From the NCBI GenBank assembly GCA_030704615.1, contig CM060733.1, forward strand, positions 70,184,001 through 70,248,000: a stretch of DNA of 64,000 bases, written 5' to 3'. The notes beneath the pieces were generated by a model that saw only the letters and a program-made list of their open reading frames with translations, was not told the DNA's origin and made no database searches. Shown in pieces: positions 3,396 to 64,000 of this stretch. Position 1 is the stretch's first letter; each line of letters starts with the position of its first letter. The DNA is from Takakia lepidozioides (lineage: Eukaryota > Plantae > Bryophyta). A program made the position numbers and the translations under genes.

Positions 3396-3577
3396 AAAGA
3401 AATGAAAGACATGGGACATGAGTGATGAAAGAGAAGCTAGACGCCAGAGATAGATAAAGCTATCTGAAAGCTAATTATCCATATCTTTGGGAGAGAGGAA
3501 TAGACATAGGGGAATCATCTGGACCTCTCACACCATTAAGATCAAAGAGTACATCACCCATACCGGAAGAACTAGAG

Positions 3578-5770: not shown

Positions 5771-5851
5771 GCACCTTATTGTAGGCACAGGCTGTATCAA
5801 GCAATCAATCGAATTGCCCAGGAGACATGAAACACAGACCTGAACAACAAG

Positions 5852-7435
5852 GTGACCAGTTATAATGTGAAGCCGGAAGGGCGAGAAACAGTTATGGACT
5901 TTGATGATTCTATGCCAGTAATCCAATTGAGAATTGGAAGCACAGAACTAACTGATGTACTGATAGATGGAGGTTCTGGAGTAAATATCATGACAGACCA
6001 ATTAAGGAAGAAGCTTGGTCTAAGTAACATGAAACCAACCCCATTTACAGTAACAATGGCAGATCAAAGAAGTGTACAGCCATTGGGATTAATAAGAGGA
6101 GTTAAGATACAGATACAGAAGATGATCTTTATAATCACAGTAATTGTGTTGAAGATGGATGAAGTCATGGAGGCTTACTCCTTATTATTGGGACGTCCGT
6201 GGCTGAAACAGGCCAGGGTATTCCATGACTGGAATTCTCAGTTACTAACCGTGCATAATGGGATACACGAGATACAAATTACCACAAAGAAATCTAGTAG
6301 ATTACCTGCTACGAGAAGACCTCGAGGAGTCAGAGAGTATGACTGGAGAGGAGGACTGGATGAGGAGCAGGAAGCTACCCTGTTTGCTGCACACCCAGAG
6401 TGGGAGCAGGTTGCGGAGATGCGGCTGGAAGGCCTAAGTTGTTTAAGGGGTATCTGCTGTGGTGTAGTGTCAACAACACCGATTGAAGAGGAAACCAATA
6501 GTTACCCATCACATTTCTATGAAGAAAAAGAAGGAGAAATGGAAATCCTAGAGGAACCAGCCACTGTGAGTTTACAGGATGAAGTGGTGACTGGTTGGAC
6601 AATCACAGCTGATGAGCAAGTGAGGGAAGTGAATGTGGGAACTAAAGAGGAACCGAGGATGGTGAAGGCAGGAGCTGATTTGGAGTCAGAATTCTTTGAA
6701 GAAGCTAAGAGTTTGTTCATCAACTACAGAGATGTATTTGCTTAGAGCTATGAGGATTTAAAAGGGATACCACCTGAAATCTGTCAGCATAAGATTGAAC
6801 TGGAACCGGGGTCAGTACCAATCAAGCAGGCAAGGTACAGAATGAATCCCAACTACGCACAGAAGGTTGGAGAAGAGATCAAGAAGTTGGCTAAGGCTAA
6901 GTTTATATACCCAATAGAGTATACAACTTGGTTGTCACCCATTGTGATAGTTCCCAAGAAGAATGGTAAACTAAGAGTTTGTGTGAACTACAAGAAGCTG
7001 AATGCTTGTACGAAGAAAGATCATTTCCCTTTGCCATTCACAGAAGCAGTATTAGACACTGTGGCAGGCCATGAGATGTACTCATTCATGGATGGCTTCA
7101 GTGGTTATAATCAAGTGCAAGTGGCAGAAGGAGACCAAGGAAAAACAGCTTTCATCACAGACTGAGGTGCTTATGCATACAAAGTCATGCCCTTTGGACT
7201 TTGTAATGCACCAGCGACCTTTCAGAGAGTGATAAGTGAATCTTTTCATGAGTATCTGGATGATTTCATGCAGGTGTTCTTGGATGATTTCAGTGTGTAC
7301 AGCTCTAAGAATGAGCACTTGCATAAATTGGAGTTATGTCTGGCCAGATGCAGGATGAGAGGTCTGGGCCTGAATCCAGAGAAGTGTACTTTCTGTGTGA
7401 ACTCAGGGGTGCTTGGATTAGAGCTAGAACTTTGA
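5852..7435 (+). pseudogene. pol: Pol: aspartic protease and reverse transcriptase, disrupted
   Basis: VLIDGGSGVN and LLLGRPWL (protease); WLSPIVIVPKKNGKLRVC, MDGFSGYNQ, MPFGLCNAPATFQR, VFLDDF (RT). In-frame stops at about 6743 and 7163. Confidence 0.9.
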
Positions 7436-7494
7436 AGAAGCAAACAGTCTTTTCATTAAATCCAAATATGTATTTGCATGGGATTATGATGATT

Positions 7495-7690
7495 TGAAAT
7501 GGATACCTCCTGGGATTTGCCAGCATAAGATTGAATTTGGAACCAAATGTTGTCCCAATCAAACAAGCAAGATACAGAATGAATCCCAACTATGCCCAGA
7601 AGGTGGGAGAAAAAATCAATAAGCTGGCTATGGCCAAATTTATATATACCCAGTGGAGTATACTACATGGCTATTAGTGATAGTACCAAA
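7495..7690 (+). repeat. Diverged second copy of the RT N-terminus (about 6760-6960)
   Basis: cagcataagattgaa...agatacagaatgaatcccaacta...cagaaggt recurs with substitutions and indels. Confidence 0.8.
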
Positions 7691-38587: not shown

Positions 38588-41500
38588 CTAGCTAAGGGAA
38601 GGTTGGTGGATCTCATAAGCCCCGGCGCATCCTAGATGCACGTTGTACATGAAGTACATGTGCTTACAAGGTAGATATGTTTGTTTTTTCTTCTTGACAG
38701 ATAGCTCATCAAAGTCGGGACAATCACAAGATGGAAACTGACCAATGTATACATTGTAAACCAATCCTGCTCTGGTAGATCCCTCTGTTTGTAGCTGGTA
38801 AATTCTCCCATAACCTGGCTGAGGCACGTTTCTGAATCCACGAACCTCAGCAATAAGAGTCTCCGCTGACTCTTGGCGACTCAAGTGTCGAGGAGTCGGA
38901 TCCCGACACCGAATGCGCACCCCATAGCGTGTAGTGGGATACTTACCCACAGGAAGGACAACACCTTGATGCATATGTTGTTCCACTGGAAGTGGTCCCA
39001 CAGGAAAGTTCGGATCAGGAACGTTGGGAGGATGGACTAGTCGAAAACCTGCAAGGGTCAAGTTGTCCACCTCTTCTTGTGTAAGGTTGGTTCCAACCTT
39101 CACAGGCCACACGTTTGGTATACCCGGTTTTCCCGAGCAATAGGATGGCACGGTCCCTCCAACACACGACAAAACATCTGTGGGGCAAAACCAAAAAACT
39201 TGCAGTTTTGGTTCTTTCATGTTCGGTGCTAGTAACTTGCCAGTGAAGCAAGGTGCAGGACTTCCTTTACCTTTCCTGATGAGCGCTTTGCATTTATCTT
39301 TGGAAACTCCAACCAAGGCATAACAACGAACCATGGAAGCAGGACCTGTCCGCTGAATCCTGAACAATGCATCGGAAAAGTCTTGTGTCTCTCTCACTGG
39401 ATTTCCCCATTGCATTGGCTGAGGAGGGATAGCAACATGTGGATTTGTCTCACAGAAAGTTGAAGAACTAGGAATGTCATGACTTGATTTGGAGCTGACG
39501 AACCTAGATGGCTGGTGTGGACTGGGCATCCCAGTGGCGCGCACTGGAACAGTCTTTACATTCATATCACACCTCCAAGATTCGTTTGGCCCACCATGCT
39601 CATCGCCTAACTTGCGTTTGACTGGAATAGTGCGATTGTCTCCCTCCAATTGAACCCCCCTTGTGTGCATGGGTGTTCCAGCTACTATGCCACGTACAAC
39701 CTTACCCATTTTTGCTGGGCTATTAGATCTAGCTGCTTGACGCAACATGAGCTCCTCTTTGTTGGGCCCCGTCCCCCATGTCTTTCCTGTGGTGTGCCTG
39801 TAAAATGTTGCTGCTGCAAAAGAGCTCGTGACATGTCATGCATGGTGGCCTCATATAGATCCACCTTCATTTTTTTCCCATTGCCTGCTGTCTTCCACCA
39901 AGCAGAATGGACTGCCTCAGACAAATTAGTGGTAGGCATATCTGCATCTGCCTCCACATCCATGTCCTCTCTCATCCATTGGCCCCACATTCGATATCTG
40001 TAGTGCCACCATGCAAGCCATGAATCTAGTTTTGGCAGACTCTTTTCTGTGCATGCTCCTGAAGAGAGCCACCAAGCCCGAATTGCAATGTATGTGGTTG
40101 TAGCATCCTCCAAGGTAGCACTATCTTTCCATTCATAACAGAGCTGAGTGTGCCTTTCACGGAAGTCCTCCAAGATATAGTCGTTGGTGTGTCTTCGGAG
40201 GCTTTCAGCCCAATGATATAAACATGTTCTTTCTTTACCTTCCATTGGGACATTGGGATCAGATCCATAAACCCTTCGAACAGCAGCCCAATTCGCTCCT
40301 GCTGCATCCGCCATGAAGCCAGCAAAATTTGGTTTGTTCAAGCCAGCAAGTTTTGCTTGTTCATTGATCATCTCCCAGAATAACACCTGAGCATCTGCAT
40401 CCTCTATTTTCATATCGCAAATGGCAATGGTCATCATTCGCTTGACATATGGTTCATAGACATGACACGCAAGAGTTGTCCAATCCTTGATGCGTTTGAC
40501 ATGGTCAAATACTACCCAACTTGTGCGTAGATCCCCCTCACTCATGCGACGCACAAGATCAACACCACTCCCGGGACCAGCAACAGACATCTTGAAAACA
40601 TGGGGGAGATGAGAAGTATGCTGGCCTGGAAGGAGATTGCTGTGAATGAAATGGTATGTACTCAGACGCTTCAACTCCAATATGGACATGATGGAATTGA
40701 CACGTGCAGATGCGACCTTGTTTTTCACATTGGGGCTACAAACATGGGCAAACTCTTCAAGAATATCTTCCAAAGCCTCTCCCTCAAGACGTACTGTCTC
40801 TGTGCCATCAGCCACAAGAACTCGATCAATCAAGAGCTTTTGGGCCATTGACAAGGAAATAGCTCCCGGGGTCGACCATGGCTTCATCTTAACGTGCTCT
40901 TGAATCATGCTTGATGCATTTTCCGCAGCCTCTCTATTCTCGCCCTTGGCACATGGATGGTTATGAAACCCAACGTGAACTGCAACACGTGTATATGTTG
41001 GAAGGGAACTTGTGACATAGTACATTCTTGCCCCACAATGCGCCTCACAGAAAGGTCTTTCTTTGCAGAAACTACACTTGAACTGGTTGAATGGAACTTG
41101 GGCTCCTGCAATGAACACCTTGTCTGCATTGCCTTCCCAATAGCGGTCATTCCGTTCTCCTTCTTTCTTGAAGAAGGGGCAAGTGCTGCTTTGACATATG
41201 AGCTTTCCAACACAAAGAACCTTACTACATTTCACATGATCTGGAACACCAGACATATTGTAGGTATTGGTCTTGCACCAAGGATGACCATCAAACTTGC
41301 GGTCCATGCCTTGGAGGGACTGTGAACCACGGTCCGTACGTAGTTTGACCACGGGGGGGAGTTCGTGGATCACTTTTCCATCAAAAGCTCGAGGAAGACA
41401 CCGAACACGATGCACTGGAATGTGACTATAGTCCAAGGTAGAAAGCTCTCCTTTTGATCCATTCCTCCGAGCAAATGGCCAAGATACTCAAAATGGACAA

Positions 41501-48361: not shown

Positions 48362-49704
48362 TGAGTATGTCTCGCCTCCATTCCCTTTGTTGCAATCTCT
48401 ATATTATTTGCAAAGCAAACCATTCCCATTTGATTTGTTAACATAAGTATACATGTATGTGTGATGCAGTGATGGGATTGTGCGGACCATCTACGATAGT
48501 CTACCCCAAAGTCCTCTTTCATCGTTTTATCTACCTTCGTATGCCGAGTCCCAAGCTTTGCATTCAATACATCAACAACGTGATGTAGGTCTTTCCAATG
48601 ATCTCTTGTTTGACCGAAGAGCAGCTATTGTTGGACAATCCGTGGATAGGTTGCGTAGAGTTGAGGCTTTCATGGATGTGTATGCCTCTGAATCACAGGC
48701 TTATGACACGGATGATGAAGTATCAGCTGATGATGTTATGTAGGTAATTAGAAATTACATATACAATACATTGTCCTCATTGTCAGTCCGAATTTTTTGT
48801 TATTTTTTATGATACATGTATTTCTCTCTAGTGTAAGGTAAAACAAATGGGGCAAATGACATGGTGTTGAAATCAGATTTCATGTTATCTTCCTGTCATT
48901 TGATTTATCTATGTAATAGTTTGTACATAGATCTCTACTGCATTTCATAGATCCCTTTACCTTAATGCAAGTTCGACATGCACTTCAGCACTATCAAATT
49001 TCATCATTAGTAAGATCAACCCTTATGAGTATTGTGGCATGTTATGTACACACAGGGTGACTATCTTTATCTCATTAGTGTTTCATTTCATTAGTGTTTC
49101 AAGTCTGAATGGGTAGTGTAGTGGTATGAACTAGGCTTGATACCCGATAGGTTGTGGGTTCTATCTCTGATGGACATTATGTTTTTGTAAAATAAAAATG
49201 TTTCAGAAGATAGATATATAGATACTGCAAAACCTATGTAACAAAGCTCCCTAGCATTGTCAAGCTCCCTAGCATTCCCTTAGCATTGCTCCATTCTGAA
49301 CTTCAAACTAGACTCCCACCATTGGAAGAGCCCGTACCTTCACCATTTGTATCTAACAAGGAGCCGTGCCTCGTCATTTTTTAATTTTTCGACCTTTTTT
49401 CTCATGTTGGAAAGCCATAAAAGCAACATGTTCATCTCCCATTCCTACACTCACCCATGTGGAATAATAATACAATGAATATGGAATATTCTATATAGAA
49501 TATTCTTATTCCATCCTTTGATATTTTGACTATGGACCCTAAGATTAGATGAATCACAATTTTTTTATATTTTTTTTGTACCCTTATTTAAGTGTTGTGC
49601 ATATAAAATTGTTCCTATGCATATCTAAAATTTGTATGCACGCATACATTCCTCCATATGCATGCATTTGTGTGCGCATATAGTATAGGCTACCTCTTCG
49701 GGAG

Positions 49705-50641
49705 AAACCCATCCGCAACAACATCTGCAATTGCTCTTGGCGCAAGCAAGTCCTTCTTGGAAAGCCATATTTTGAGTGAAGGAGATTCTGTGGGGACTAA
49801 ACTTGACGGTGCAGCATTGGACCTGGTCATGGATTATTTCTCCACTTTAAGTTCACCTAACATTCGGCATCAGATCAATGCATTGAGAATGGGCTCTGGG
49901 ATCAGAGGCTACATAGACAATATTTTGGAATTGAAACGAGTGAGCAAGTACAATTACATCCAGGACAATGTATTCCCAGGTCAAGGTGCCATCAAAGTTT
50001 TTCTTTTCAAAATGTCGACTGTTGAGGAGGGCAGTGGGGTTAGCCTTGTGAAGCGGATGCAGAAGACTGGGGACTTGCAGAATTGTTTTCTTATGTTTGA
50101 TCATGTGAAACGAGTGAAGGATTGGACGACAATGGCTTGTCATGTCTACGATCCAGTGTACCAACGAGTTATGACAATTGCAGTTTGTGACATGCAATCC
50201 GAGGATACGGAATCCCAGAAGCTCATGTGGAATTCCCTGATACGTGTCATGGGCTGCCATGGGCTGCCATCTCCAAATTTCGCAGGTTTCATGGCGGATA
50301 GTGCTCAAGCAAATTTCAATGCTGTTCGTATTGTCTTCGGATCGGGCGACCCAAAAGTGCCTATGCCAGGAAGAGAGCGTACATGTCTATTCCATTGGAC
50401 ACAATATCTAGAAAAACATACAAAGTCGGACATCAAACCAGAGATGCAGACTCAGCACCGTAAATTGTGCAAAGAGTACAAAGATGCTAGAACAATGAAG
50501 GAGGCGGACACTTTGTTCCAAACAATTCGTGCATGGTGGTTCTCTTCTGGAGCTGCATCACTTGAGAGTATGAGAGCATTGGAAGATTGGCTGGCGTTTT
50601 GGCACTTCCGGTATAGACAGTGGGGAGCAGCCATGACAATG
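49705..50641 (+). CDS. Outer transposase, part 2 (MULE DDE core), ends at GT donor 50642
   Basis: FLMFDHVKRVKDWTTMACHVYDP, FAGFMADSAQAN, ERTCLFHW; colinear with 39685-41436. Confidence 0.88.
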
Positions 50642-50730
50642 GTACGAGGCTTCTATTTCATGCTTTATTTATACATTTGCTTTCCATATTTTTGACTCAT
50701 TGCTTTTTTTATGTTGTTTCCTGTGCACTG

Positions 50731-50817
50731 TGTCGTGCGCATACATATCGCTACACAACTACATCGCTGTCCAAACCACACCACACATATATGCACAATA
50801 AAGTAGTTTACCACAAT
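50731..50817 (-). repeat. Repeat B2 (87 bp, terminal)
   Basis: Identical by eye to 51168-51254. Confidence 0.95.
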
Positions 50818-51165
50818 AGATAGAAGTCCAACGAACACACTGTGACACAAAACATGAAAACCAAACCATCACTCTTAGAAAATAGTAGTCGAGCCAGGGG
50901 CACCCCAAGCTATGGGGACTCCACCCCACAACAACCTGTACCCCTACATAAGCACACTCAAATCTAAACACATGCAGGAGCTCGGTCGCGCAGGCTCAAC
51001 TCGAGAAAGATGAGCCGCGCGACTGCCGCTCTCGTGAAGATAAGACGGACCAGGTGTCAAACTAAACTTGACACCTGATTTAACACTTGACCTAAATCCA
51101 AGTGTTAAATACAAATAACTAGTTTTATTCTAGCTGTTTTCACACTGTGCTTATTTAACTTGACA
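50818..51165 (-). repeat. Repeat A2 (348 bp)
   Basis: Identical by eye to 62386-62733 except the base at 50818. Confidence 0.95.
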
Positions 51166-51167
51166 GC

Positions 51168-51254
51168 TGTCGTGCGCATACATATCGCTACACAACTACA
51201 TCGCTGTCCAAACCACACCACACATATATGCACAATAAAGTAGTTTACCACAAT
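51168..51254 (-). repeat. Repeat B1 (87 bp, internal), preceded in element sense by polypurine tract AGGGGGGCG (51263-51255)
   Basis: Direct reading; PPT followed by AT-TGTGG. Confidence 0.9.
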
Positions 51255-51511
51255 CGCCCCCCTAGCTGGTGGATAGGTCCCTCTACCTCCAGATAGCTAC
51301 AAGACGTAATAGCCATAGCCGTACTAAGTCCTGTATCACTGTCCCTATCGCACTCAAACTCTATAGACCAAGAGGCCGGGTACAAGAGTAGCCCCATCGT
51401 TAGTCGCCGTCTTGCAATCTGTGAACTTGAGCCAGGACTTCGTGTATTCAAGGTCTCCTGTAGCTGGGCCTTGCGTTGCTTGTTAGCCTCCCATGGTTGT
51501 ATCCACTCCCA

Positions 51512-52936
51512 CTATCCAATGCATTGTGGACATAACCAATCCCCATCTGGAACCATCTCAAGAGGTGGAGTCAAGCACCCCATATGCCAACCTCTAGAGC
51601 ATCGATCACACACCAGCATGGTGGCTGCCCCTTTAGCAGACCCACACAACATGCACCTCAAACCTGCAGATACCACTGCCAGGTTTGGGTCAATCCTGCC
51701 ATCGACATTCGGAAGGTGACATGGCGCACAATTACGCACATGGTCCTTCCAAGTTATGCCATCCCGACCCTCCAAGACCAAGACGCCTGAGGGCAAGACC
51801 TCTCGTACCCTCAAAATAACACGTCCTGCAGTCACATCCAGGGTCGTAGGAGCAGTCTGCTGCAGATAGACATAGTCACCAGGGTTGAATCTCCGAACCC
51901 CAGGACGATAGCCCCCACCACGTATGGTAGCATACCTCAACGTATCACGGTGTTGTGCAATGGCAAGGTTCTCGAAAGCCATGGGCATGACTCTCTTGAA
52001 CAACTTTGCACGCTGCTCACATGCACGTGCCCATACGTCCGGATCGTCAAGGTTAAGAACTGTAGCAGCTTCTCTGCAAACGGATGTAGGCAAATCCGGC
52101 TCTCGGCCAAAGAGAAGAAAGTATGGTGAGAAGGAGGCAAGTGATGCTTGCTTGCTGAACCTGTAGCCCATGGCTAACCAGGGTAACTGAAGGTCCCAAT
52201 CTCCTAGGTGTCCCTTCTGCAAGCCATACTTGCGCAAACCCCTCTTTACTGTCTGAACAACTCTCTCTGCCAAGCCATCGGCCTCAGGATGATCCCGAGA
52301 AGTGGTGCGGTGGTCTATCAAGGCCTTGTCACACAAAGCCTGAAACTCCCCCAAGAACTCTCTCCCTTGGTCCGTGAGTACCTCAGCTGGAGCACCGAAT
52401 CGGCTAAGCACACAATCCAAGAATGCATACGCAGCTCCCTCACTAGCCTTATCAGGCAATGGAACCAATTCAATCCACTTGGAGAAGTGCTCCACCATCA
52501 CCAACACGTACTTGTTGTGGCACATGGTCAGTGGCAATGGCCCTGCGAAGTCAAGACTCCACCTGTAGCCCAATCCCATGATCGGAAGAGGGTGCAATTG
52601 TGGAGTAGGGGCGTTGAATGAAGCACGCACCCTGTCACACACCATGCACCTAGCCACAAATTGTTGCACCTCTGTGTGCATACCACGCCACCAATACTGC
52701 CCCTGCAGTAGGCTATGGGTGCGTCGCACCCCAAAATGCCCCAACTCCTCGTGGGCATGCCGCACTAACCGTGCCCGCTGTGTTGGGTGAGGCACAATCC
52801 TCACTCGACCATCCTCCCACACTCGGAGCAGGTGTGTCCCCTCCCACTTGAACCTCTTGGCTCGTTGTAGGATCCGATCCCTCTCATTGGCAGTCACAGT
52901 GGCTGCCGTGTCTCCAGTGCGAAGATAGTCCAACAC
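51512..52936 (-). CDS. Integrase (H2C2 zinc domain and rve DDE) with C-terminal PHD finger
   Basis: HEELGH...CMVC; WSLDFAGP, VLTDQGREF, GLAERVV; CMLC...MLVCDRCSRGWHMGCLTPPL..VPDGDWLCPQC (C4HC3). Confidence 0.93.
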   Translation of the reverse strand: MLDYLRTGDTAATVTANERDRILQRAKRFKWEGTHLLRVWEDGRVRIVPHPTQRARLVRHAHEELGHFGVRRTHSLLQGQYWWRGMHTEVQQFVARCMVCDRVRASFNAPTPQLHPLPIMGLGYRWSLDFAGPLPLTMCHNKYVLVMVEHFSKWIELVPLPDKASEGAAYAFLDCVLSRFGAPAEVLTDQGREFLGEFQALCDKALIDHRTTSRDHPEADGLAERVVQTVKRGLRKYGLQKGHLGDWDLQLPWLAMGYRFSKQASLASFSPYFLLFGREPDLPTSVCREAATVLNLDDPDVWARACEQRAKLFKRVMPMAFENLAIAQHRDTLRYATIRGGGYRPGVRRFNPGDYVYLQQTAPTTLDVTAGRVILRVREVLPSGVLVLEGRDGITWKDHVRNCAPCHLPNVDGRIDPNLAVVSAGLRCMLCGSAKGAATMLVCDRCSRGWHMGCLTPPLEMVPDGDWLCPQCIG

Positions 52937-54486
52937 AGCTGAATCCTCATGTATATCTTTGGCGCCACTTGCTCATTGCTGGCCTCAGGGTCCTCAGACA
53001 CTTGATCCACAGTCATCCCTGTTGCAGGTCCAACCTGGCCTTCCGCTGCCAAGATACACAGAAATGCAGATGCATGCCATCCGGGCACCATCTCCTCGTC
53101 CGTCTCACCATGCCACCGAGCTCCAGTGTCATCCTGCTGGCTCGTGCATGGATTGCGACTCAACCCATCTGCATTGCGATTGACCAAACCCGGTCGATGC
53201 ACCACCTGAAAGTCATACTCTTGAAGGATGAGTGCCCACCGTGCAAGCTTCCCCGTAAGCTTGTCTGACTCCATCAACCACTTGAGTGGTTGGTGATCCG
53301 TGACAAGGGTGAAGAGATTGCCGTATAAATAGCACCTGAAGTGTGCCACGGCCCACACTGCAGCTAAGCATTCTCCCTCATATGAGCTATACTTAGACTC
53401 TGCAGCATTGTTCGAGCGGCTAGCATAAGCCACTACGAACTCTCTTCCCTCATCATCCACCTGTGTGAGCACCGCTCCAAGCCCCAGCATGCTCCAATCT
53501 GTATGCAGCTGAAAAGGACGCCCCCTGATAGGTCGTCTCAAGATGGGCGCCGAGGTCAACCTCGCCTTGAGCTCTTGAAAAGCTTGTTCTTGCTCATCTT
53601 CCCACTGCCACTCCTGGTCCACCTTGGTCAGCCTGGTTAGAGCCTTTGCAATGGCACTAAATCCCTTAACAAACCGTCTGTAATAGTTTGCTAACCCCAT
53701 GAAAGCTCGAACTCGGCTCACATCCGTGGGGCGTGGAACCTGTGCAATGGACTCTACCTTAGTCTGCTGTACCCCCAATCCTCCAGGATATATCATGTGA
53801 CCCAGATACTCAATCTGGTTGTGGAAAAACTTGCACTTGCCCGGATGTAACTTCAATCCGTGCGTCCTCAAGCGCTCAAATACCCCCTGAAGGTGTCTCT
53901 CATGCTCCTCCACCGTAGCACTAAAGATGATGATGTCATCTATGTAGCACCGAGCAAACTCCACCCCTGCTAGAATCCTGTCCATGACTCTTTGAAACTC
54001 AGCGGGAGCGTTTTTAAGCCCAAATGGTAAGAACCGCCACTGGTATAGGCAATCCTTCCCGTGCTCGTTGATCCCCCAGAATGCCGTTTTTTGCTTATCC
54101 GCCTCCTTGATCGGCAACTGGTGATATCCGGATCGTAAATCCAACGTGCTAAAGACCTTGGAATGCCCAATGGCATCAAAGATCTCCTCTGGTGTTGGCA
54201 TGGCATACCTATCGGACTTGGTCTGACGATTTACAGGCCGGTAATCACCGCACATACGTCTCTCCGTCCAATTGCCATAGACATCCTTCTTAGCTGGCAT
54301 CACTGTGGCTGAAGCATACTCTCCACCAGAGAGCTCCACCAAACCTGCCTCCCAGAGATCTTGAGTCCTCATCTGAATCAAAGACCTCTCCATGTCACTG
54401 TATCTATAGGGTCTCCGAAAGATTGGCGTGTCAGTGGCCAACTCAATACGGATCTCTTGACCCTTCAGTGCTCCCAAGTCCTTCAA
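52894..54486 (-). CDS. Reverse transcriptase and RNase H
   Basis: RMCGDYRPVN, LDLRSGYHQ, LPFGLKNAP, YIDDII; RNase H LHTDWS, YEGECLA, VTDHQPL, NADGLSR. Confidence 0.95.
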   Translation of the reverse strand: MKDLGALKGQEIRIELATDTPIFRRPYRYSDMERSLIQMRTQDLWEAGLVELSGGEYASATVMPAKKDVYGNWTERRMCGDYRPVNRQTKSDRYAMPTPEEIFDAIGHSKVFSTLDLRSGYHQLPIKEADKQKTAFWGINEHGKDCLYQWRFLPFGLKNAPAEFQRVMDRILAGVEFARCYIDDIIIFSATVEEHERHLQGVFERLRTHGLKLHPGKCKFFHNQIEYLGHMIYPGGLGVQQTKVESIAQVPRPTDVSRVRAFMGLANYYRRFVKGFSAIAKALTRLTKVDQEWQWEDEQEQAFQELKARLTSAPILRRPIRGRPFQLHTDWSMLGLGAVLTQVDDEGREFVVAYASRSNNAAESKYSSYEGECLAAVWAVAHFRCYLYGNLFTLVTDHQPLKWLMESDKLTGKLARWALILQEYDFQVVHRPGLVNRNADGLSRNPCTSQQDDTGARWHGETDEEMVPGWHASAFLCILAAEGQVGPATGMTVDQVSEDPEASNEQVAPKIYMRIQLCWTIFALETRQPL

Positions 54487-54645
54487 ACTGAAGGCACAGC
54501 AATTCCTATAAGCCCTCAGGAACCGCCGTATACGTCGTCTCTCTCCTCCGGTGACAATGGGTCCAATGTCAGGCTCCCAATTGTCCTCCGTAACTGCAAC
54601 CTTAAGTCCAGTGGGCTTAGAGGTAGAGGACGCGTCCCGTGGTTG

Positions 54646-56010
54646 CTATGCTGCAACCTCTTGAGCAGTACCCCCTTCCTGCTCAGTCAATGACAAGGCC
54701 TCATCCTGCCCCATCGTCTCATCATTGAGAACCTCCTCATCCCGAGAAGAATCCCCAACCCCATCCATCACAGCTGCCTTCGCTGCCAACTCCCTCTGAA
54801 CCTCGAGCACCTCCCACATGTGCCATGGATGTCTACACCTCGTGGTCCTCACCGGCTCGCCCCCACTCGCTGCCTGTACCGTCTCGGTAGGCAGAGAGAC
54901 CGTCAAGGGAAGTGCACTCCGCACTCTACGTTGCTCAGCCATAGCCAAGCTGACAATCCAGGTCAAGCAATTGAGATCCATTGCTTGCCCCAACACCTGA
55001 CGACGTGATGCCTCAGAAAGAGAAGGCACCGCCGTGGTCCCAGTGGAAAACCCCATAGCCCGCTCTCGCTCGTCGGCATTAGGCTCCACTAACTGCTGCA
55101 ACTGAGCATCCCACAAGAGGCCAGGTCCACCATCCCGAAAAGCATGGGATCCTGGGAAGCTGAGCAGTGTAGGTAATGCTGCTCGTGGTTGACCCACCCT
55201 GTTGACCACTGCCAAAGGCGAACGGTCATCGTGTCTCACACGTTGAGACTGCCTTCCTGTGTCCAAAATGCCATCCACGGTGAGGTGTGCTGGCCGCTGC
55301 ACCCCATCAAATGCACGCTTGAGCAGTGCGGGTGGCATCAAGTTAGTCCACCATAGTCGTGGACGATGAGCCCGTGACCCCACTGCAGCTGCATCCAGCA
55401 ACACTGCTGACCCAAGCCACGACCGGACTTGATGCACACTGGCCATCACCCTGGCCCGAGAATCACCCATCAGTGGTACATTCTCCAAGATGTATGCTGG
55501 AGATACAGCTTGATGAAGCTGCAAGCAGCGCAAAATCCGCACCATCTCCCAAAACAGACCCGTCCTCGAGTCTCGCAATCCATTGCCATGCCCGGCTGAT
55601 GAATGCCCTTGGCAGGGCCAACCTGCCACTATCAGATCAATGGAGCCAACCTGCTCCAAATCTTGCGCCCCCAACAAGGAAATGTCTGCTGGCAAGGCTT
55701 GTTGGTATCCACGAACTGCAGACACAGGCAACAAGTCAGGGTACTGCTGTACCAACTGAGCCACATGGCGCAGTGAGACGCGTCGTGCAGTCTCATCCCT
55801 CTCCACATACAGGTAACGCCTTACCCGCACACCTGCCTGTAGCACAGCAGCCAATCCGGTGCTGATCCCGCCAAACAAGTCCAGAAGGCAAATGCCTTCA
55901 TCCGGCCGCTGCCACACAAGAGGTGTGGTGTCCAATGGCGACAACTGAGGTGGCCCTGGTGCAATCACCGCACTCTCCTCCTCTCTGACGGTACAAAAGC
56001 TTCTTCCCAA
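54646..56010 (-). CDS. C5 cytosine DNA methyltransferase domain (DNMT3/DRM-like) within pol
   Basis: Motif I LLDLFGGISTG, II YVERD, IV IDLIVAGWPCQ, VI YILENV, VIII AHRPRLWWTN, IX ERERAMGF, X RRQVLGQAM. Confidence 0.93.
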   Translation of the reverse strand: MGRSFCTVREEESAVIAPGPPQLSPLDTTPLVWQRPDEGICLLDLFGGISTGLAAVLQAGVRVRRYLYVERDETARRVSLRHVAQLVQQYPDLLPVSAVRGYQQALPADISLLGAQDLEQVGSIDLIVAGWPCQGHSSAGHGNGLRDSRTGLFWEMVRILRCLQLHQAVSPAYILENVPLMGDSRARVMASVHQVRSWLGSAVLLDAAAVGSRAHRPRLWWTNLMPPALLKRAFDGVQRPAHLTVDGILDTGRQSQRVRHDDRSPLAVVNRVGQPRAALPTLLSFPGSHAFRDGGPGLLWDAQLQQLVEPNADERERAMGFSTGTTAVPSLSEASRRQVLGQAMDLNCLTWIVSLAMAEQRRVRSALPLTVSLPTETVQAASGGEPVRTTRCRHPWHMWEVLEVQRELAAKAAVMDGVGDSSRDEEVLNDETMGQDEALSLTEQEGGTAQEVAA

Positions 56011-58847
56011 GCTTGTTGCACCCGTCCATCAGCAGCTTGCTGCAAATCCTTGCTCGTACCCCACAACGGAGTGTGAGCAACCATGGCAGGCAACTCCGCC
56101 GTACCATGCATGTCATCCTGCTCTGCTGGAGGTGGCACATCCTCTGCATGGGCATTGCCTTCCAGCAACTCTCCAGGCCAACTAACGGCAGCTGTGAAGG
56201 CGGCTAGTGTTGGCATCTTGCCCCGCTGGGCAGCTGCAATACCCCCAATGAATGTCACAGGGAGCTGTGCACGGCGACCATCCCCTGACTGCCATCCAGG
56301 CCTGTAGGATGCTGACTCCTCCCAGAAATCCAGGGTGAAGCCCATGGGGTATAACACTGCCCCACCAACGAGGACATCGTAAGAGACCGCGTCTGTCACA
56401 ATGGCCTTGGCTCGCATCACTGAGCCATCTACAGGATGATCCGGCTGCAGTCTAATAGCCAACTGATGTCGTGTCATGCCGCGAGCCTGCTCTGATCCTC
56501 CCAGAGATGTCTGTATCTGGAAAGGACAAGGCTCCATATCCGCCTCCATGAGGCCCAAACCTGCAATAGCAGCTCTGCCCAACATCAGTGGCTGAGCTCC
56601 TGAGTCCAACAAGACCCGCAGTGGCCGGTACTTCTTGCCTGCCGGTCCACTCAAAGTGAAAATGCCTCCCTGGTTGTCTAACAAGACAACTCCAGGTGTC
56701 ACCATGGCGCGCTCAATGGCTGGCCTAGCTGGCAGCTCCGTCAACCTGGCAGCTGCAACTTGCCATGGCGCAGCCGTGGCAGTCTTGACCCTCAAATCCG
56801 AGGATCCCTCTGCCACTACACCTTCCACTAACTCCGCAGAAGATGAAGTGACCTCCCCACTCTCACAGAGTGTTGCTGCTAGTCTGAACACTGCAGCTGG
56901 TCTCACCCCCGGCGTCGCAATCATTGTTGCCGAGAACAGTGGGGCCTGACACACAGAGGTGGCTGCCCCCAATAACACACCGGCCGCACTAGCCTTGGCA
57001 GCAGGAGTCAATGCTGCACGTGTAGCTCTCCCCAATGGCATAGTAACCTCCGCCTCGGTAACAGTCGGGCGAGAACTAGGTGCCATGGATGGCGTCGACA
57101 CAGTCTCCGCCAATGTGAATGACTGAGGAAGCCTTGCCTGACGGCTTGCCTCCCCACGCTGTGGATCCAATTCCACCTCTGCACCTCGTGGCTCAGGAAC
57201 TCGTGCTGCTCCTCGAGTCACGGCTGCAGCAGACTCCACCTGCTCTAGTGGTAGTGCTGCTCCGCACATAAATCCCATGCCTCCCATATCTCCTCCCTCA
57301 GGAGCAGGAGGTGGACCATCCCGCCTGGGAGCCGGTACCGCCTGAGCTATAGCCATGGCAGCGAGCCTCTGCTCTAGCTGCTGAAGCCGGTTGGCCATGC
57401 CTTGATCAACGCCCTGACCACCGCGTCCTTGGCCATGTTGAGCTTGCCCTTGGCCTGCACCTCGTGCCCGACCACCTCGTCCTCTCTGGGCTGGTCCACC
57501 TCGCCCCCGGCCACCATTGTTCCCTTGGAACTGGCCTGGGCGCAACTCAGGATGCAAGTCATAACACTGGGCATCTCCATGCCCATACTTGCCACAATGC
57601 ACACACTGCAACTGTGCAGGCTGTGCTTGTGCTGGCCTTCTGCCACTCTCTGGGCAATCTCTCTTGACATGGGGTCCTCCACATGTCCAACATATCACCC
57701 CTGGTTGCTGTTGGCCTGCAAAAGATGCCACGGGCCTCTGCACCTGAGGTCCCCTGTAAGCTCCATGGAACTTGGGCTGGGCAACCTTGCCCCCCTGACC
57801 ACGCTGTTGGGCAGTCCCTTGTGCCTGTGGGCTGACAGTTGTGCCCCGTACAGGCATGTCCTTGCCAAATCCAATTGTAACAACTCGCTCCTCCACCATG
57901 TTGAGCTCAATCCGCTCAGCCAGTAGAAACACATCTGTTAATGTGGGTTGGGCTGCTTGTAACAGGGTTGCATCTCGCACCCTTCTCTTGAGCTCCTTGT
58001 CCAGAATTCCATACCAAAACTGGATTGCCTGAGCTTCAGTAACCCCTTGGGTCACACTTATCAAGCGCCTCATACGAGTGTACGCCTCTCGCAGGCTCTC
58101 ACTGGGTTTGCGCTGGAAGTCTTGCAAACTTCGCAGCTTCTCTGTCCGTACACCTTGGTAGTTCCTCCGCAAATCCTGGAAGAACTCCACCACCGGGTTG
58201 AATCTAGGCACATGTGTTGTAGTCGTGGCAGGAGGAGTAGTAGCACCTTTTGAACTGGTACCACCTGCAGAAGTACCAGCACTACTTGCTCCACTACTAG
58301 TGCTGGCAGTGGGAGCTATTGGTACTGATGCAGCTACTGGTCGCGTCGTGCCTCGAGTAATGGAGACGTAGTCAGGTGACCAATACATCCTCCACTCCTC
58401 AATCTCTGCTTCATGTCCTCGCCTGAACTCGTGGTAATCGTCCATAGGCGGGCCTTCCAAATGCTGGAACAGTCCCTTCCACGCCATGAATGGGGTGAAT
58501 AGCTGTGGATTGCGCATCTGCTGCAAATCACACCAGCTGTCAAACTCCTGGATAAAGTCATCCAACTCAATTGTGCCCACAGCTCCAGAGTACCTACGAG
58601 GCCCCTTGGTAGCTCCATACATCTCCTCCATGTCGTCCCACAACAATGGCGAATGAAAGTGCACACTTGTTGATGAAGCCTCCGAGTCTGTGTCTGACTC
58701 TACAGTAATTGAAGGTGGCGGTGAAGGTGGTCTGAACCGAATACCTCGTCTTGTGAACCCACTCTCACTGTTACTGCCTGTAGCCGTACTCCCCTCAAAA
58801 CCCTTGGGTAACTCCGTAATGACACTCACAATGTGCACCTCCTCCAC
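55965..58847 (-). CDS. gag: Gag and aspartic protease
   Basis: FQRKPSESLREAYTRM; knuckles CWTCGGPHVKRDC and CVHCGKYGHGDAQC; protease VLLDSGAQ...YDVLVGG. Confidence 0.9.
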   Translation of the reverse strand: MEEVHIVSVITELPKGFEGSTATGSNSESGFTRRGIRFRPPSPPPSITVESDTDSEASSTSVHFHSPLLWDDMEEMYGATKGPRRYSGAVGTIELDDFIQEFDSWCDLQQMRNPQLFTPFMAWKGLFQHLEGPPMDDYHEFRRGHEAEIEEWRMYWSPDYVSITRGTTRPVAASVPIAPTASTSSGASSAGTSAGGTSSKGATTPPATTTTHVPRFNPVVEFFQDLRRNYQGVRTEKLRSLQDFQRKPSESLREAYTRMRRLISVTQGVTEAQAIQFWYGILDKELKRRVRDATLLQAAQPTLTDVFLLAERIELNMVEERVVTIGFGKDMPVRGTTVSPQAQGTAQQRGQGGKVAQPKFHGAYRGPQVQRPVASFAGQQQPGVICWTCGGPHVKRDCPESGRRPAQAQPAQLQCVHCGKYGHGDAQCYDLHPELRPGQFQGNNGGRGRGGPAQRGRGGRARGAGQGQAQHGQGRGGQGVDQGMANRLQQLEQRLAAMAIAQAVPAPRRDGPPPAPEGGDMGGMGFMCGAALPLEQVESAAAVTRGAARVPEPRGAEVELDPQRGEASRQARLPQSFTLAETVSTPSMAPSSRPTVTEAEVTMPLGRATRAALTPAAKASAAGVLLGAATSVCQAPLFSATMIATPGVRPAAVFRLAATLCESGEVTSSSAELVEGVVAEGSSDLRVKTATAAPWQVAAARLTELPARPAIERAMVTPGVVLLDNQGGIFTLSGPAGKKYRPLRVLLDSGAQPLMLGRAAIAGLGLMEADMEPCPFQIQTSLGGSEQARGMTRHQLAIRLQPDHPVDGSVMRAKAIVTDAVSYDVLVGGAVLYPMGFTLDFWEESASYRPGWQSGDGRRAQLPVTFIGGIAAAQRGKMPTLAAFTAAVSWPGELLEGNAHAEDVPPPAEQDDMHGTAELPAMVAHTPLWGTSKDLQQAADGRVQQAWEEAFVPSERRRVR

Positions 58848-59366: not shown

Positions 59367-60116
59367 CTATGCTATCAACTTCCAGACTTCTCTCAAAGTG
59401 CCTCGCTCTGCGTGATGGTAAGGTGTAGGAGGTATATCTATGTCCAGAAACCTGCCACTAACCTTGTCCCAAGCTACAGTAGCTCGCTCTAACCAACCCT
59501 CCTCCTCTTTCTGCCAGGTAGAGACAAAGCAATACTCCCCTATCTCCCGCTCACTGAACACTAAAGAAAACAAAGGTAGGGTCTGATAGTCTCTCAACTC
59601 GAAAGCTTTGAGACGGTTGCGGGTGTCTTCATTGCGAATGACTGCATCGCCTTCAAACAGAACAAACTTGTCCTCGCTAATGAACCCCCGCTCGTGGTTG
59701 CCTTGTGCAGAGCGTGTCCGACTGCAACACTGTCTAATTGCACAAACTTGTGTAGCTCCTGCTCCTCTGCTCCAGTACACCACGGCCTTGTGACTGAACA
59801 CCTTGGTCCCCGGGGCTGTCTTTGGCTGTGTTCCAAGCCTAGCTTTCACCCACTTTGGTATTTCACCTACAGCTGCAGAACTGCTGGCTCCAACAGAGTT
59901 CTGACTGTCCAAGGCGATATTGAGGCCCTCAATGCCAACTACAGCAGTCTGTTGTCTACTGCTAATGCCTGACTCCCAGTATGCAATCAACTCGTCCAAC
60001 TGTTCTCCACTCAAATCAGTCTGAGTTCCTTGGGAAACATAAATCTTGTCCCCTTTGGTGCACAGGCTAAGAGAAGAGACCTGCCCTTCAACGACGTCCT
60101 CATTTCCCCCAGCCAT
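59367..60116 (-). CDS. Extra 249-aa ORF upstream of gag, unknown function
   Basis: Intact ATG-initiated ORF in element-sense orientation; no recognised motif. Confidence 0.5.
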   Translation of the reverse strand: MAGGNEDVVEGQVSSLSLCTKGDKIYVSQGTQTDLSGEQLDELIAYWESGISSRQQTAVVGIEGLNIALDSQNSVGASSSAAVGEIPKWVKARLGTQPKTAPGTKVFSHKAVVYWSRGAGATQVCAIRQCCSRTRSAQGNHERGFISEDKFVLFEGDAVIRNEDTRNRLKAFELRDYQTLPLFSLVFSEREIGEYCFVSTWQKEEEGWLERATVAWDKVSGRFLDIDIPPTPYHHAERGTLREVWKLIA

Positions 60117-60944
60117 ACAAGGAGTACATCCACAGATTTGTCTCTAATATAGACCAGCACAGGTTCTAGAGACAGGATTGTGGATCTTTCATGGCACACT
60201 CACACTCTAAAAATTCCATAGATTTTTAGCAGAGTCCCAAAAACAGAAACCAGGTCTAGATAGGTAGATTTCCCCTTTCTGCAGCTATCCCCTCAAAAAC
60301 TGAGTCAAACGGAGCTCATTTGACAAAGATATGACCAACCAGGCTCTTTAAACATTTAAATTAGATCAAAAAGGCTTTGTTTTTTTTTTTTTTTTTTAAC
60401 ACCAAAACGCTTTTGCCATTACAACCTGTTCCCAGGTTATCTACGAGTTCCCGAGGTCGTTCCCCTCCAGGATTCTCCAGGCACCAAGAGCTCGTTAATT
60501 CCAACACTCGACCTCAGTTGGGTGGGGTATCACGATTTGCTTTTCTCTGCGCGTGGGCCTGCCTCCTCGAGACCTAGAGACTACAAACCAGGAATTGGGG
60601 CGATTTCAAGAGCAGATGCACTGCGCAGCACCTTCATGGCTTATGGACAGGCGGCCTGCTGTGATGTGGCCGTCTTTGCATGGAATCCAAAGCCAAGACC
60701 AGCTTGAAGTTCCATCAACTTGGTCTAATTCGCATCTCTCATGTTTTCCTGCAACGGGCATTGACGCCCACAATTTCCAGGGCTTGCACTGAAGCATTTC
60801 TAAGCTGTTCTTAGGCCACTAACACACCCTGTGTAGCTGCAGAAATTGTTCCCACGGGACCCTATAGATTCACCTGTAAGGCTGCTCAACGCCTGAGCTT
60901 AGAGTATGGTTGGATCACTTGCTCATTAAAGGCCCACAGAATAT

Positions 60945-61522
60945 CTACAAAAGGACCCCAGCCTGACCACCACCTGCTTGTGCCAGCTTGTTCAAAGATT
61001 TGCCCAGGTACTTTCCTTGTCTCTCAGCAACACTCTTTGTTTGCGGTAGGGCTTCCATTAGTAACTGGATCAACTGCCAAGCTTCCACCAGGGCACTTCT
61101 TCACAGGTAAGGAGTGGACAAAGGAAGAAGATCCAACACCCATTGATCAAACCAGCAGCCCGTATGGCACCTCCGTCCCATCCGTAAGCACTAATTTGTC
61201 TGGCAGAACATCCTTGACTACATCTTGCATCAGCTTTACCCCAGTCTGAAAACAGTTATGCATTTAAGACCCTCCAGCTTATCCCTCCAAACCCTTGATC
61301 AGGTGCCTGGTCGCGTACTCCCGGAGTCGAACATCGAAAGATGAAAAAAAATCTCCTTTGCCTCAATAAGTGTGACATGGATAAAATCTTTCACATGGCC
61401 GAACTAGCCGTAGACGTCTCTCCTGATGAGTCACTGAGCTCACCACTGAGTTCCACCCCTGTAGGACCACCACCTACAACAACACAGTGTAGCAGTCTTG
61501 CCTTCTCATCTGCTGATATCCC
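60945..61522 (-). pseudogene. Captured fragment of mitochondrial alternative NAD(P)H dehydrogenase (NDA-type)
   Basis: Manual translation: [30 protein letters not shown]...[13 protein letters not shown]...SSFDVRLREYA | TGVKL...[21 protein letters not shown]...VAERQGKYL; stops and frameshifts. Confidence 0.85.
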
Positions 61523-62174
61523 TGCAATCCATTTTGAAAAAAAAAAGAAACTGTCCAGGTACTGCATGCTGGATTGCCTTGTCGGTTGTTGGCTAGTCCC
61601 ACCACTGCTGTATTTAGCCTTCTATCACATGAATCAAGTCGTCCACAGTGGTGTCTTCCCTAAACTGCACTTGCCACTACTGTCCTTGTCAATGGTGATT
61701 CAGTTAGAGTCACCCCTGAATCACGATAACTTGCAGCCCCAAGTGACAACGTTCAGATGTGGACCCACTTTTGAGACCCACCAAATGTCATTTATGCCCA
61801 GTCCTCTGCCAAGTCACAGATACACACAACTAGTTGGATCAGAGCCTTCTTCCGAGCAAGGCATTCTTTTCCGCGCTGCAGTGTCATCTGCTGCCAAAAA
61901 TTTGGAAGACAAGCTTCCACCCACTGTTCCACATCATCATCATCGTTCGTTGTGACTTCAAGCTTCTGATTCTGCAAAGCCTGGACAGTCAAGCGGTTGT
62001 TCCTTTGAAAGAGGATCAGTGGTATGCAATGAAGCCTTCAGACATGACACACAAGACCAGAAGAGCTCCTCTATAAGCTTACTGGTGAAACGATCATCCA
62101 GCTTCAAGGATCATGCATAGGTGCCAACTAGCATTTGCTGCTGCATTTTTAAGTATCTCCTTGTGTACCCCAAA

Positions 62175-62297
62175 GCCTCTAGTGACTTGGTAGCTTCAGC
62201 GACTGCAATAACAATGGCGGCTCTGGCATCGTCATCCTCCAGGCGTTTCAGGGCACGCTGAATCTTGTGGTCACATTCAATGATATGCTTCTCAAAC
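62175..62297 (-). pseudogene. Captured fragment of LUC7-like splicing factor
   Basis: FEKHIIECDHKIQRALKRLEDDDARAAIVIAVAEATKSLE resembles plant LUC7 (ECDRKI.RALKRL.EEDAKAAIAISVSEVT, recalled from memory). Confidence 0.65.
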
Positions 62298-62385
62298 TAA
62301 TCACTACTTATACGCAGGTAATCTTGCAAGTGCTAACCCTCAACTCCTACCTTGCACTCACAGGTAAGAGAGCATCTTTCTCGAG

Positions 62386-62733
62386 TGATAGAAGTCCAAC
62401 GAACACACTGTGACACAAAACATGAAAACCAAACCATCACTCTTAGAAAATAGTAGTCGAGCCAGGGGCACCCCAAGCTATGGGGACTCCACCCCACAAC
62501 AACCTGTACCCCTACATAAGCACACTCAAATCTAAACACATGCAGGAGCTCGGTCGCGCAGGCTCAACTCGAGAAAGATGAGCCGCGCGACTGCCGCTCT
62601 CGTGAAGATAAGACGGACCAGGTGTCAAACTAAACTTGACACCTGATTTAACACTTGACCTAAATCCAAGTGTTAAATACAAATAACTAGTTTTATTCTA
62701 GCTGTTTTCACACTGTGCTTATTTAACTTGACA
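62386..62733 (-). repeat. Repeat A1 (348 bp, 5' terminal; TGTCAAG...CTATCA)
   Basis: Direct repeat of 50818-51165. Confidence 0.95.
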
Positions 62734-62765
62734 ACTGTTCTGAAGTGTGGTTATCCTCTTTGCAG

Positions 62766-64000
62766 AACATGTCCATTGAGGAAATGGCGGACATGCCATC
62801 TTGCAATTTGGCAGAAACTGTGCACAACGCATGGTTGCAGCAGTCTGGGAAACGAGGTCGGGATTTGTATGTGGCAACAACAGATGATTTGATACGTGCC
62901 TTGCAACAACAAACCCGATACCGTGATTTCTTACGAGGTGGGGTTGGTGGCAAGGGTCCGGACAAATGGGAGTTGATGTTGCGTGCTGCAAACAGATCTG
63001 GGGATCCAATCAAGATAGCACGGGCGGTGAGCATGTATGCCCAGGGAACGCCACTTGTTTCTAGAGTTCCACATCTTGAAGGGGAGGAGAGATTCGGCTC
63101 CTGTAAGAGGAAATTGAACACTCCACCTGGTTCGGATTCAGATTCCCACAGGGCAGACCGTGATAACTTCTCGAAGCCTTGTGTTCCCCTGCATGACAGC
63201 TCCATGTCCGGAACCTCCATTGTGGAGGAACCTCCAACACGACGGCAAGCTCCAGCATCAAACAGTGCCACTGAAATGGTGCAGGAGAGAAACAACCCCC
63301 TTGATGTGCTTGAGTCCGCATGTCCCGACCACGTTTGGCACATAGAACGCACAAGTGTAGGGTCTCGTGTGAAATGTACAGCGATCAGGGCAACTAATTT
63401 CGAGAAATGCACTTCATCTATATCCAGAGGTGGTGCCCGAACTCCTGCTCCGACTTTCACGGGCTTGATGCGTCCATACGGTCAACCAGAAGCCAAGAAC
63501 CACAAGTTCTGGTTCTGCGCAGATGATTGTGCCAAATGTGTGCATGGAACTGTGCGTCCTTCCGTAGTGATGAAGCCAACTCCTCCAACCATTTGGCCCG
63601 TGAAGGTGGGAACACATCTCAGCTTTCAGGAGATTGAAATGCTGGAGGAGGCAGGTTTTTCCCTTGCGAGACAACCCCAACTCCATGCATGTGCTACTAC
63701 TTCTGCGTCCTCCCGGGTCCCCCCGGCAAATCCTGACTTGTGGCCAACCAAACGAGATGGAAAGCTCGTTCGGCGTTTCCCTCCAACTGCTGAACACTTT
63801 GGCAAAGTGGAGTCCGCAAGAATGCTCCAAGCTCGTGTTGGAAGCACCACGGAAGTACCCGATCCAGGATATGGTCGGGTATTCACAATCATCACTTCCA
63901 CATCTGCTGTTCATGACAGGACCTACGACATCACGGTTTCCAATTTCCCCAATTGCACATGTCCTGATTTTGTGAATATGCTATCAACCAGTTTGGGCAA
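62766..64000 (+). CDS. Outer transposase, part 3 (catalytic E region to start of SWIM), runs off window
   Basis: After acceptor TGCAG: NMSIEEMADMPSCNLAETVHNAW...DLYVAT...; same frame reaches FPNCTCPDF at 63951; homologous to the inner transposase C-terminal half. Confidence 0.88.

Follow-up and report, generated by a model that had tools for sequence, protein, structure and literature searches.

Land plants silence retrotransposons by cytosine methylation, and the locus in this study raises the question of why a retrotransposon in such a plant should carry a cytosine methyltransferase of its own. In the window, which is the whole 64,000-nucleotide stretch of Takakia lepidozioides DNA that was analyzed, a stop-to-stop frame on the minus strand (56028-54646) encodes a C5 cytosine methyltransferase, and this frame sits within an insertion of 12,003 bp (62733-50731). 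All features of the element given below are on the minus strand, except for one palindrome to which no strand is assigned. A liverwort and peat-moss family of such elements, widespread and in places very abundant, conserves its own de novo-type methyltransferase, and the relatives in Marchantia polymorpha make the purpose of the enzyme testable in a genetic model.

The domain itself (54907..55908) carries motifs I to X in unpermuted order, with the catalytic Cys, Glu and Arg intact: LDLFGGI (I), YVER (II), WPCQ (IV) and LENV (VI) are followed by AHRPRLWWTN (VIII), ERERAMGF (IX) and RQVLG (X). An earlier note, made from the letters alone, had claimed that these motifs are intact and non-permuted, and this is borne out both by the reading of the frame and by the profile check it proposed, in which PF00145 matched with E=2.8e-13 (50.5 bits; cut-off 22). 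The same note called the domain DNMT3-like, and DNMT3A indeed tops both the sequence and the fold matches. By sequence, the best solved relatives are DNMT3A (7e-11) and then DNMT3B (2e-7), with M.HhaI at 3e-4 and DRM-type entries at 8e-6 to 5e-4 over the N-terminal 130 amino acids only. The motifs of plant DRM enzymes are circularly permuted (VI-X before I-V), and a plant DRM identity was rejected on the I-X order of the domain; the match to DRM2 is confined to domain residues 4-130, which is what a permuted enzyme would give. An AlphaFold model of the domain, built on 52 relatives, reached a pLDDT of 94.8 and has DNMT3A as its best fold match (E=1e-19, TM 0.72/0.84) at an identity of only about 20%, and all of the fold matches listed are DNMT3 structures. 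Sequence and model together therefore identify the domain, as a prediction, as a C5 cytosine methyltransferase of the DNMT3-like kind.

Across full-length domains of the family the catalytic Cys is kept in 66 of 68, the Glu of ENV in all 68, and the two Arg residues of motif VIII in 65 and 66 of 68, respectively. Several positions with dimer and cofactor roles in DNMT3A differ in the alignment, and the target-recognition region gives no sequence alignment to DNMT3A, so the sequence context of methylation is not predictable. Atlas clusters with PF00145 for the homologue P0002 came from Streptophyta, Chlorophyta and phages, all at 0.95-0.96, and are thus non-discriminating.

Relatives are many and comprised 261 proteins of near length and 68 longer ones, with 49 of at least 1345 residues carrying the profile. 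Metagenome stretches gave 194 of 276 candidates, with 80 kept, and viral contigs gave one weak locus (L081) from three candidate stretches. Among the matches listed, most of which are unnamed, the land-plant hosts named are Marchantia polymorpha, Marchantia paleacea, Calypogeia, Riccia and Sphagnum and the algal hosts Klebsormidium nitens, Closterium, Scenedesmus and Haematococcus, with no seed plant, fern or lycophyte named. One protein of this retroelement family (P0021) is deposited as a cytosine methyltransferase of a Candidatus Obscuribacterales bin, which is probably contamination. In a quick tree of 106 domains, from which partial domains of <250 aligned residues and unnamed short proteins were excluded, and whose outgroups were fish DNMT3 and a Symbiodinium protein (both long-branched) rather than host plant DNMTs, the window domain falls in a clade of 21 with proteins from Marchantia, Calypogeia and Sphagnum (100% SH-aLRT), a placement that makes a non-seed land plant the likely host.

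That the domain is a passenger, whether captured once from a host gene or decaying as a relic, has a probability close to negligible. The frameshifts in this copy (see below) and a dN/dS of 0.5-0.9 in decayed peat-moss-type copies could be read that way, but the ratios in those copies are also high in RT (0.47-0.67), which points to post-insertion decay, as would be expected. Between families, the domain has a dN/dS of 0.136 (dS 0.25) and 0.123 (dS 1.3), which is similar to the protease (0.116 and 0.129), with RT lower at 0.04; these are simple counting estimates that are saturated for most between-family pairs. The dN/dS check named in the earlier note therefore came out as purifying selection on the domain between families (0.12-0.14). 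The domain is also nearer to element-borne relatives (38-76% identity) than to fish DNMT3 (26%), is found at this position in Klebsormidium, Closterium, liverwort and peat-moss relatives, and has a tree that agrees with that of RT in the main split. The presence of the same element-borne domain in many relatives, under purifying selection, largely refutes a one-off capture.

A second architecture, RT-RH-DNMT-IN-PHD, forms its own clade in both the methyltransferase tree (44 members, 100%) and the RT-RH tree (36 members, 99%), and includes P0157, P0158, P0162, P0165, P0167-P0169, P0176 and most of P0230-P0256, among them P0238 from Scenedesmus. The domain has changed place in the polyprotein, and the family extends to chlorophyte algae. 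Additionally, five divergent Gag/protease-DNMT proteins (P0177, P0178, P0180, P0205 and P0207) end 11-12 residues past the domain, and the P0177 cluster includes a K. nitens fragment; this group may represent a second, independent separation of methyltransferase and RT.

The element around the methyltransferase contains Gag, protease, RT, RNase H, a DDE integrase and a C-terminal PHD finger, with all catalytic motifs intact. Gag, with two CCHC knuckles, and an aspartic protease (LLDSGA) occupy 55965..58631, with the first ATG at 58631, and are 50% identical to residues 1-859 of P0123 (Mp_4g09160), a naturally intact relative from Marchantia. The RT (YIDD) and RNase H lie at 52894..54645, and the integrase (HHCC, with D-D-E intact) at 51512..52972, ending in the PHD finger at about 51655-51521; no chromodomain was found in the element by Pfam. 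The PR-RT-RH-IN order is that of Ty3/Gypsy elements with a Dnmt3-type domain added, and the Ty3 RT is the best solved match to the RT (E=1e-73). The element is flanked by a 4-bp target-site duplication (CAGT in the sense of the element; left copy 62734..62737, right copy 50727..50730) and interrupts a transposase-like gene, the two halves of which match consecutive parts of an ORF at 41487-39685, a paralogue in the window. These are two related SWIM-finger transposase-like genes, at 38588-41487 (minus strand) and at 49607-50695 and 62727-63998 (plus strand), the latter being the one split by the element.

This copy, as assembled, cannot make the enzyme, because of a one-base frameshift upstream between protease and methyltransferase (55983..55985). 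A second one-base frameshift lies between RNase H and integrase (52966..52968). Both are specific to this copy or are assembly errors: protease and methyltransferase share a frame in 49 of 57 junctions, with this copy among the 8 that do not, and RNase H and integrase do so in 29 of 33, with this copy among the other 4. Copies elsewhere in the host are known through Logan contigs, the depth of which gives no copy number, and other contigs of the same organism show a one-base difference at both places. Programmed frameshifting at 55984 and 52967 was rejected, given that relatives are in frame and same-organism contigs differ by one base. Either the frameshifts are assembly errors, or this defective copy would have relied on the proteins of intact copies to move.

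The 5' internal region (59367..62300) was found by ORF and Pfam reading to be long and to carry cargo, and is about 2.6 kb longer than in peat-moss-type elements. It contains broken fragments similar to a type II NAD(P)H dehydrogenase (about 61621-60948; PF07992 at E=8e-4, below the cut-off), a run of A (about 60395-60380) and a frame of 258 codons (60143-59367) of no known family, for which neither Pfam nor the 81 fetched loci gave a match. The plant type II dehydrogenase-like pieces, the A-run and the frame are together likely to be captured host RNA. Elsewhere in the window, a diverged (84%) piece of the repeat R1 described below lies on the opposite strand at 1692-1806 and is a remnant of another copy or of a relative. 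A second, unrelated Ty3/Gypsy element at 3458-7670 (plus strand) retains Gag, protease and the beginning of RT, contains stops and a 240-bp internal duplication, and is strongly depleted in CpG; a 10-bp tandem array lies upstream of it at about 1940-2230.

The earlier note placed the domain in pol, between protease and RT. The position between protease and RT stands, but this is no ordinary Pol domain: methyltransferase and RT do not share one open frame, an in-frame amber stop separates the two, and the methyltransferase ends a Gag-protease-DNMT frame. The stop (TAG at 54648-54646) is conserved, and so no lesion, and lies in a readthrough-type context, TAG CAA CCA (54640..54648), with RT in frame behind it. 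Of the 52 loci in which both domains are visible, 50 have, in the RT frame and 170-205 nt upstream of RT, a stop with CAR-YY after it, although these loci are not independent, coming mostly from one peat-moss-type family with some insertions counted twice, and amount to about four families (the window, L015, the peat-moss type, and L036/L037/L049). The context is TAG CAACCC in 30, TAA CAACCC in 14 and another in 6. All 40 of the same-frame loci have the stop with CAR-YY, which is the sole stop in 21 of them, and CAR follows other stops in the spacer in just 4 of 67 cases. The divergent contexts are TAG CAG TTA (L036 and L037), TAG CAA TCA (L049) and TAG CAA CCA (L015 and the window), and that of the peat-moss type, CAA CCC, is an imperfect CAR YYA.

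In the available text of Lao et al. (2009; PMC2754532), UAG-CAR-YYA is the readthrough signal of TMV, which works in plants and gave 32% readthrough in a plant reporter. The window, L015, L036, L037 and L049 share this exact consensus after UAG; unlike in TMV, a leaky stop here would determine how much Gag-PR-DNMT is made relative to RT-RH-IN. The databases contain many Gag-PR-DNMT proteins that end 51-139 residues past the domain, and the first Met after the stop falls inside the RT domain, with none preceding that domain. The conserved stop is thus likely to be leaky and read through. Most ribosomes would stop after the methyltransferase and a minority would read through to make RT-RH-IN-PHD, and since Gag-protease-DNMT would be the major product, each particle would take up the enzyme at capsid copy number. 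On this prediction, particles should contain far more of the enzyme than of RT and integrase.

Removal of the stop by splicing, or production of RT-IN from a separate RNA, would likewise leave the enzyme in excess over RT, and splicing has a precedent in Ogre elements. Four gene models from Marchantia and Sphagnum (P0126, P0127, P0131 and P0159) do fuse the methyltransferase to RT, with spacers of 42-94 residues, but each uses a different junction, which is usual for ab initio models that skip a stop. In the peat-moss type, a pyrimidine run precedes the TAG and an in-frame ATG follows it, yet both are absent from the window, L036 and L049; the conserved bases follow the stop and none precede it, and every family stays in frame across the stop. 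A splicing or separate-RNA origin is on this evidence rather improbable. Among host contigs, the stop is not one of the 40 variants listed (there are 657 more), and a contig covering 52849-55020 crosses the stop without a skip, although it is given no weight on splicing because the run it comes from is only guessed to be RNA. The stop appears to be derived, because in the RT-RH tree the stop-bearing elements are one clade (100%) nested in the PR-DNMT-RT group that includes the K. nitens protein. The K. nitens protein and several relatives are without a stop before RT, so an excess of enzyme is not essential for the wider family.

The repeats are the second unusual feature of the element. The layout is R1-body-PPT-R2-GC-R1-R2, the same as in L059, L061 and L078 and partly in other loci, and a canonical LTR layout was rejected on account of these split and permuted repeats, which are DIRS-like (A-body-B-A-B). 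A DIRS identity, with its tyrosine recombinase, was also rejected, as rve and H2C2 integrase domains are present; no tyrosine recombinase was matched in the ORFs of the element by Pfam. The 5' repeat R1 (62387..62733; 347 bp) starts with TGTCA and recurs at 50819..51165, and R2 (87 bp, ending CGACA) is present at 51168..51254 and, as the terminal copy at the right end of the element, at 50731..50817. The earlier note judged the repeats identical by eye and the insertion recent, and both claims hold: the copies match at 347 of 347 (R1) and 87 of 87 (R2) bases, so the insertion is recent. A polypurine tract, AGGGGGGCG (51255..51263), precedes the first R2, with the same tract in related loci. 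TG...CA ends, a DDE integrase and a short target duplication, which are features of LTR retrotransposons, are present. The 4-bp duplication is exact in five of the seven insertions checked (the window, L059, L078, L027 and L017) and matches at 3 of 4 bases in L061 and L040.

No tRNA genes are present in the window, and the primer-binding position directly after R1 (62373..62386) has no TGG start of the tRNA type. It is instead exactly complementary over 14 nt to a position within R1 (62567..62580), which is the predicted self-primer and transcript start; 0 of 2000 shuffles reached even 11 nt. A different self-primer pair of 17 nt occupies the same place in the peat-moss type (L059, L051 and L052), in which 13 of 24 5' ends have a complement of at least 10 nt; the other 11, all decayed copies, have a shorter one or none. 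The first 1300 bases of L036 and L049 gave no self-primer, and the 5' repeats of these two loci probably lie off the contigs.

Within the 3' unit, a palindrome J, GACAGCTGTC (51162..51171), consists of the right element end, two bases and the left element end. The same junction occurs in peat-moss-type loci and L049, with one change in L036, such that the internal junction CACGACA-GC-TGTCA, carrying both ends of the element, is kept in three families; J is predicted to be the site of integrase cleavage. The junction s (50817..50819), which joins the end of R1 (the self-primer end) to the start of R2 (the polypurine tract end) with one extra base, is predicted to be the circle junction, and variants of it with one base fewer or two more are seen among host contigs. 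Under the proposed mechanism, the 5' end of the RNA would itself prime reverse transcription, giving linear DNA with R2-GC-R1 at both ends; these ends would be joined at s, and integrase would open the circle at the internal palindrome, leaving TGTC...GACA ends and the layout R1-body-R2-R1-R2. The observed layout is the product expected from a two-repeat circle opened in this way.

All of the 24 visible 5' ends, which represent about 21 distinct insertions, start at R1, and none has the full R2-GC-R1 unit. The mirror layout, R1-R2-R1-body-R2, was likewise absent from all 24. It should arise from a symmetric 2-LTR circle as often as the observed layout, and its absence therefore counts against the circle model. 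Of 17 loci with the tract and the first R2 visible, seven have the long form, nine a short form, R1-body-R2 (L014, L017, L024, L026, L027, L040, L066, L070 and L075), and one ends at the contig end. The short form, without a 3' R1, should be a replication dead end but is as frequent as the long form, and L027 and L017 also carry 4-bp duplications; it could come from one-repeat circles, double cuts or R2-R2 recombination.

One explanation for these asymmetries would give the methyltransferase control over integration, with the CpGs beside the palindrome methylated such that the internal copy is spared and cutting by integrase is limited to the last-made junction. On that account, the methyl marks on these conserved CpGs may protect the junction that becomes double-stranded first. 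Three families with barely alignable repeats retain two CpGs, one in CGAT about 22 nt and the other in CACGACA about 5 nt from the end, the mirror layout is missing, and Gypsy-Dnmt3 and DIRS-Dnmt3 elements both have the split-repeat layout in the available text of de Mendoza et al. (2018; PMC5890265). The CpGs may, however, simply be integrase contacts, the asymmetry could reflect where the integration complex sits, and the short form could come from cutting both junctions; control of integration is therefore considered doubtful. The full version, in which a green-lineage Ty3/Gypsy family would no longer integrate through linear ends but would circularize its cDNA, have integrase open the palindrome, and use a DNMT3-like enzyme loaded at capsid copy number by way of the leaky stop to methylate the adjacent CpGs and choose the junction cut, is a shade more doubtful again. 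If true, the choice of junction by methylation would be a restriction-modification-like switch inside a eukaryotic retrotransposon.

The preferred reading is that the methyltransferase marks the element's own cDNA before integration, and that the DNA would arrive already methylated and looking like host heterochromatin, which is the most likely purpose. Methylation of cDNA has been proposed for DNMT retrotransposons previously (de Mendoza et al., 2018, in the text available; PMC5890265). The whole model of leaky-stop packaging, integration from a circle and cDNA methylation is given a probability of roughly 0.6 from sequence, structural modeling and analogy, and the anatomy of the element alone is much firmer. 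The most likely role of the enzyme would be methylation of the element's own cDNA inside the particle. Counting against it, the K. nitens domain gave no methylation in yeast, and no sign of self-methylation was seen in the CpG and CHG composition of the element, in which the CpG observed/expected ratio is 0.51, against 0.53, 0.54 and 0.62 in neighboring DNA and 0.20 in the other Gypsy element of the window. The PHD finger is closest to those of CHD4, KDM5 PHD1, ATXR5, DPF3, PHF21A and AIRE, which are readers of unmodified H3 tails (unmodified H3K4). By analogy, it would steer integration to silent chromatin, which pre-methylated arrival would fit.

It is also conceivable, though unlikely, that the target of the domain is chromatin, during or after insertion, or that it works mainly as a nucleic-acid binder or RNA methyltransferase, and not on cDNA. 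A PHD finger steering integrase to unmethylated H3K4 would suit a chromatin role, and the RT-RH-DNMT-IN-PHD architecture places the domain next to integrase; the algal domain was inactive on yeast DNA, a result that its authors call inconclusive in the available text (de Mendoza et al., 2018; PMC5890265). In the lineage of the window, however, the stop leaves the domain with Gag and the PHD finger with integrase, so that the two are not linked by default, and the domain keeps all DNA-C5 catalytic residues and matches DNA-bound DNMT3A in its modeled fold. Methylation of the cDNA thus remains the preferred role.

With regard to known systems, the closest is KnitGypsy-Dnmt3 of K. nitens, which in the available text has a Dnmt3 domain in Pol, DIRS-like repeats and purifying selection (de Mendoza et al., 2018; PMC5890265). 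The window element shares with it the Ty3/Gypsy domains, the unpermuted Dnmt3-type domain and the DIRS-like split repeats, and its domain order, PR-DNMT-RT-RH-IN, recurs in the K. nitens protein KFL_009030040 (P0229), with 45% identity across 76% of the methyltransferase domain. The two fall in the same 99% clade of the RT-RH tree (FastTree, with no DNMT-less outgroup), and in the quick methyltransferase tree the domains are homologous, with the K. nitens branch at the base without resolved placement. The element therefore appears by sequence to be a land-plant variant of the KnitGypsy-Dnmt3 kind. They differ in that the algal methyltransferase lies in the Pol frame, with no stop in P0229, and the window element has the conserved stop; priming and the origin of the split repeats are not treated in the available text of the algal account. 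The name KnitGypsy-Dnmt3 was found in one paper only, and two later papers, in the text available, say "streptophytes" for such elements, one of them citing de Mendoza et al. (2018). The kind is thus already known from one alga, and within the literature within reach, which excludes most subscription journals, no prior paper was found on land-plant members, the conserved stop or the priming and circle model.

Self-priming is known among Ty3/Gypsy elements from Tf1/Sushi and the plant Tcn1 group (Neumann et al., 2019; PMC6317226, in the text available). These share with the window element the lack of a tRNA site, a primer position complementary within the 5' repeat, and moss-type hosts, and differ from it in that the window element has a PHD finger rather than a chromodomain, a methyltransferase and permuted repeats; the likeness noted is in the primer signature.

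Integration from a circle was long regarded as a dead end. The repeat anatomy here points to a DDE retroelement that would integrate from one, and LTR finders that require two matching terminal repeats would miss such elements. A parallel is available in foamy virus, in which integrase cuts 2-LTR circles at their palindromic junction (Delelis et al., 2005; PMC1180852, in the text available). Common to both is a palindrome that holds the two processed ends and is opened, here by prediction, by a DDE integrase. In the element, however, the palindrome lies inside the repeat unit and not where the linear ends meet, and unlike in foamy virus, all visible integrated copies end at the palindrome.

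The split-repeat layout itself is also that of elements of the DIRS/Ngaro type, some of which bear DAM (10.64898/2026.05.21.726589, in the text available). Among these, SymbioDIRS-Dnmt3 shares with the window element the A-body-B-A-B arrangement, the methyltransferase and an internal copy of the end junction, but in the available description it has a tyrosine recombinase, whereas the element in this study has a DDE integrase, TG...CA ends and 4-bp duplications (de Mendoza et al., 2018; PMC5890265).
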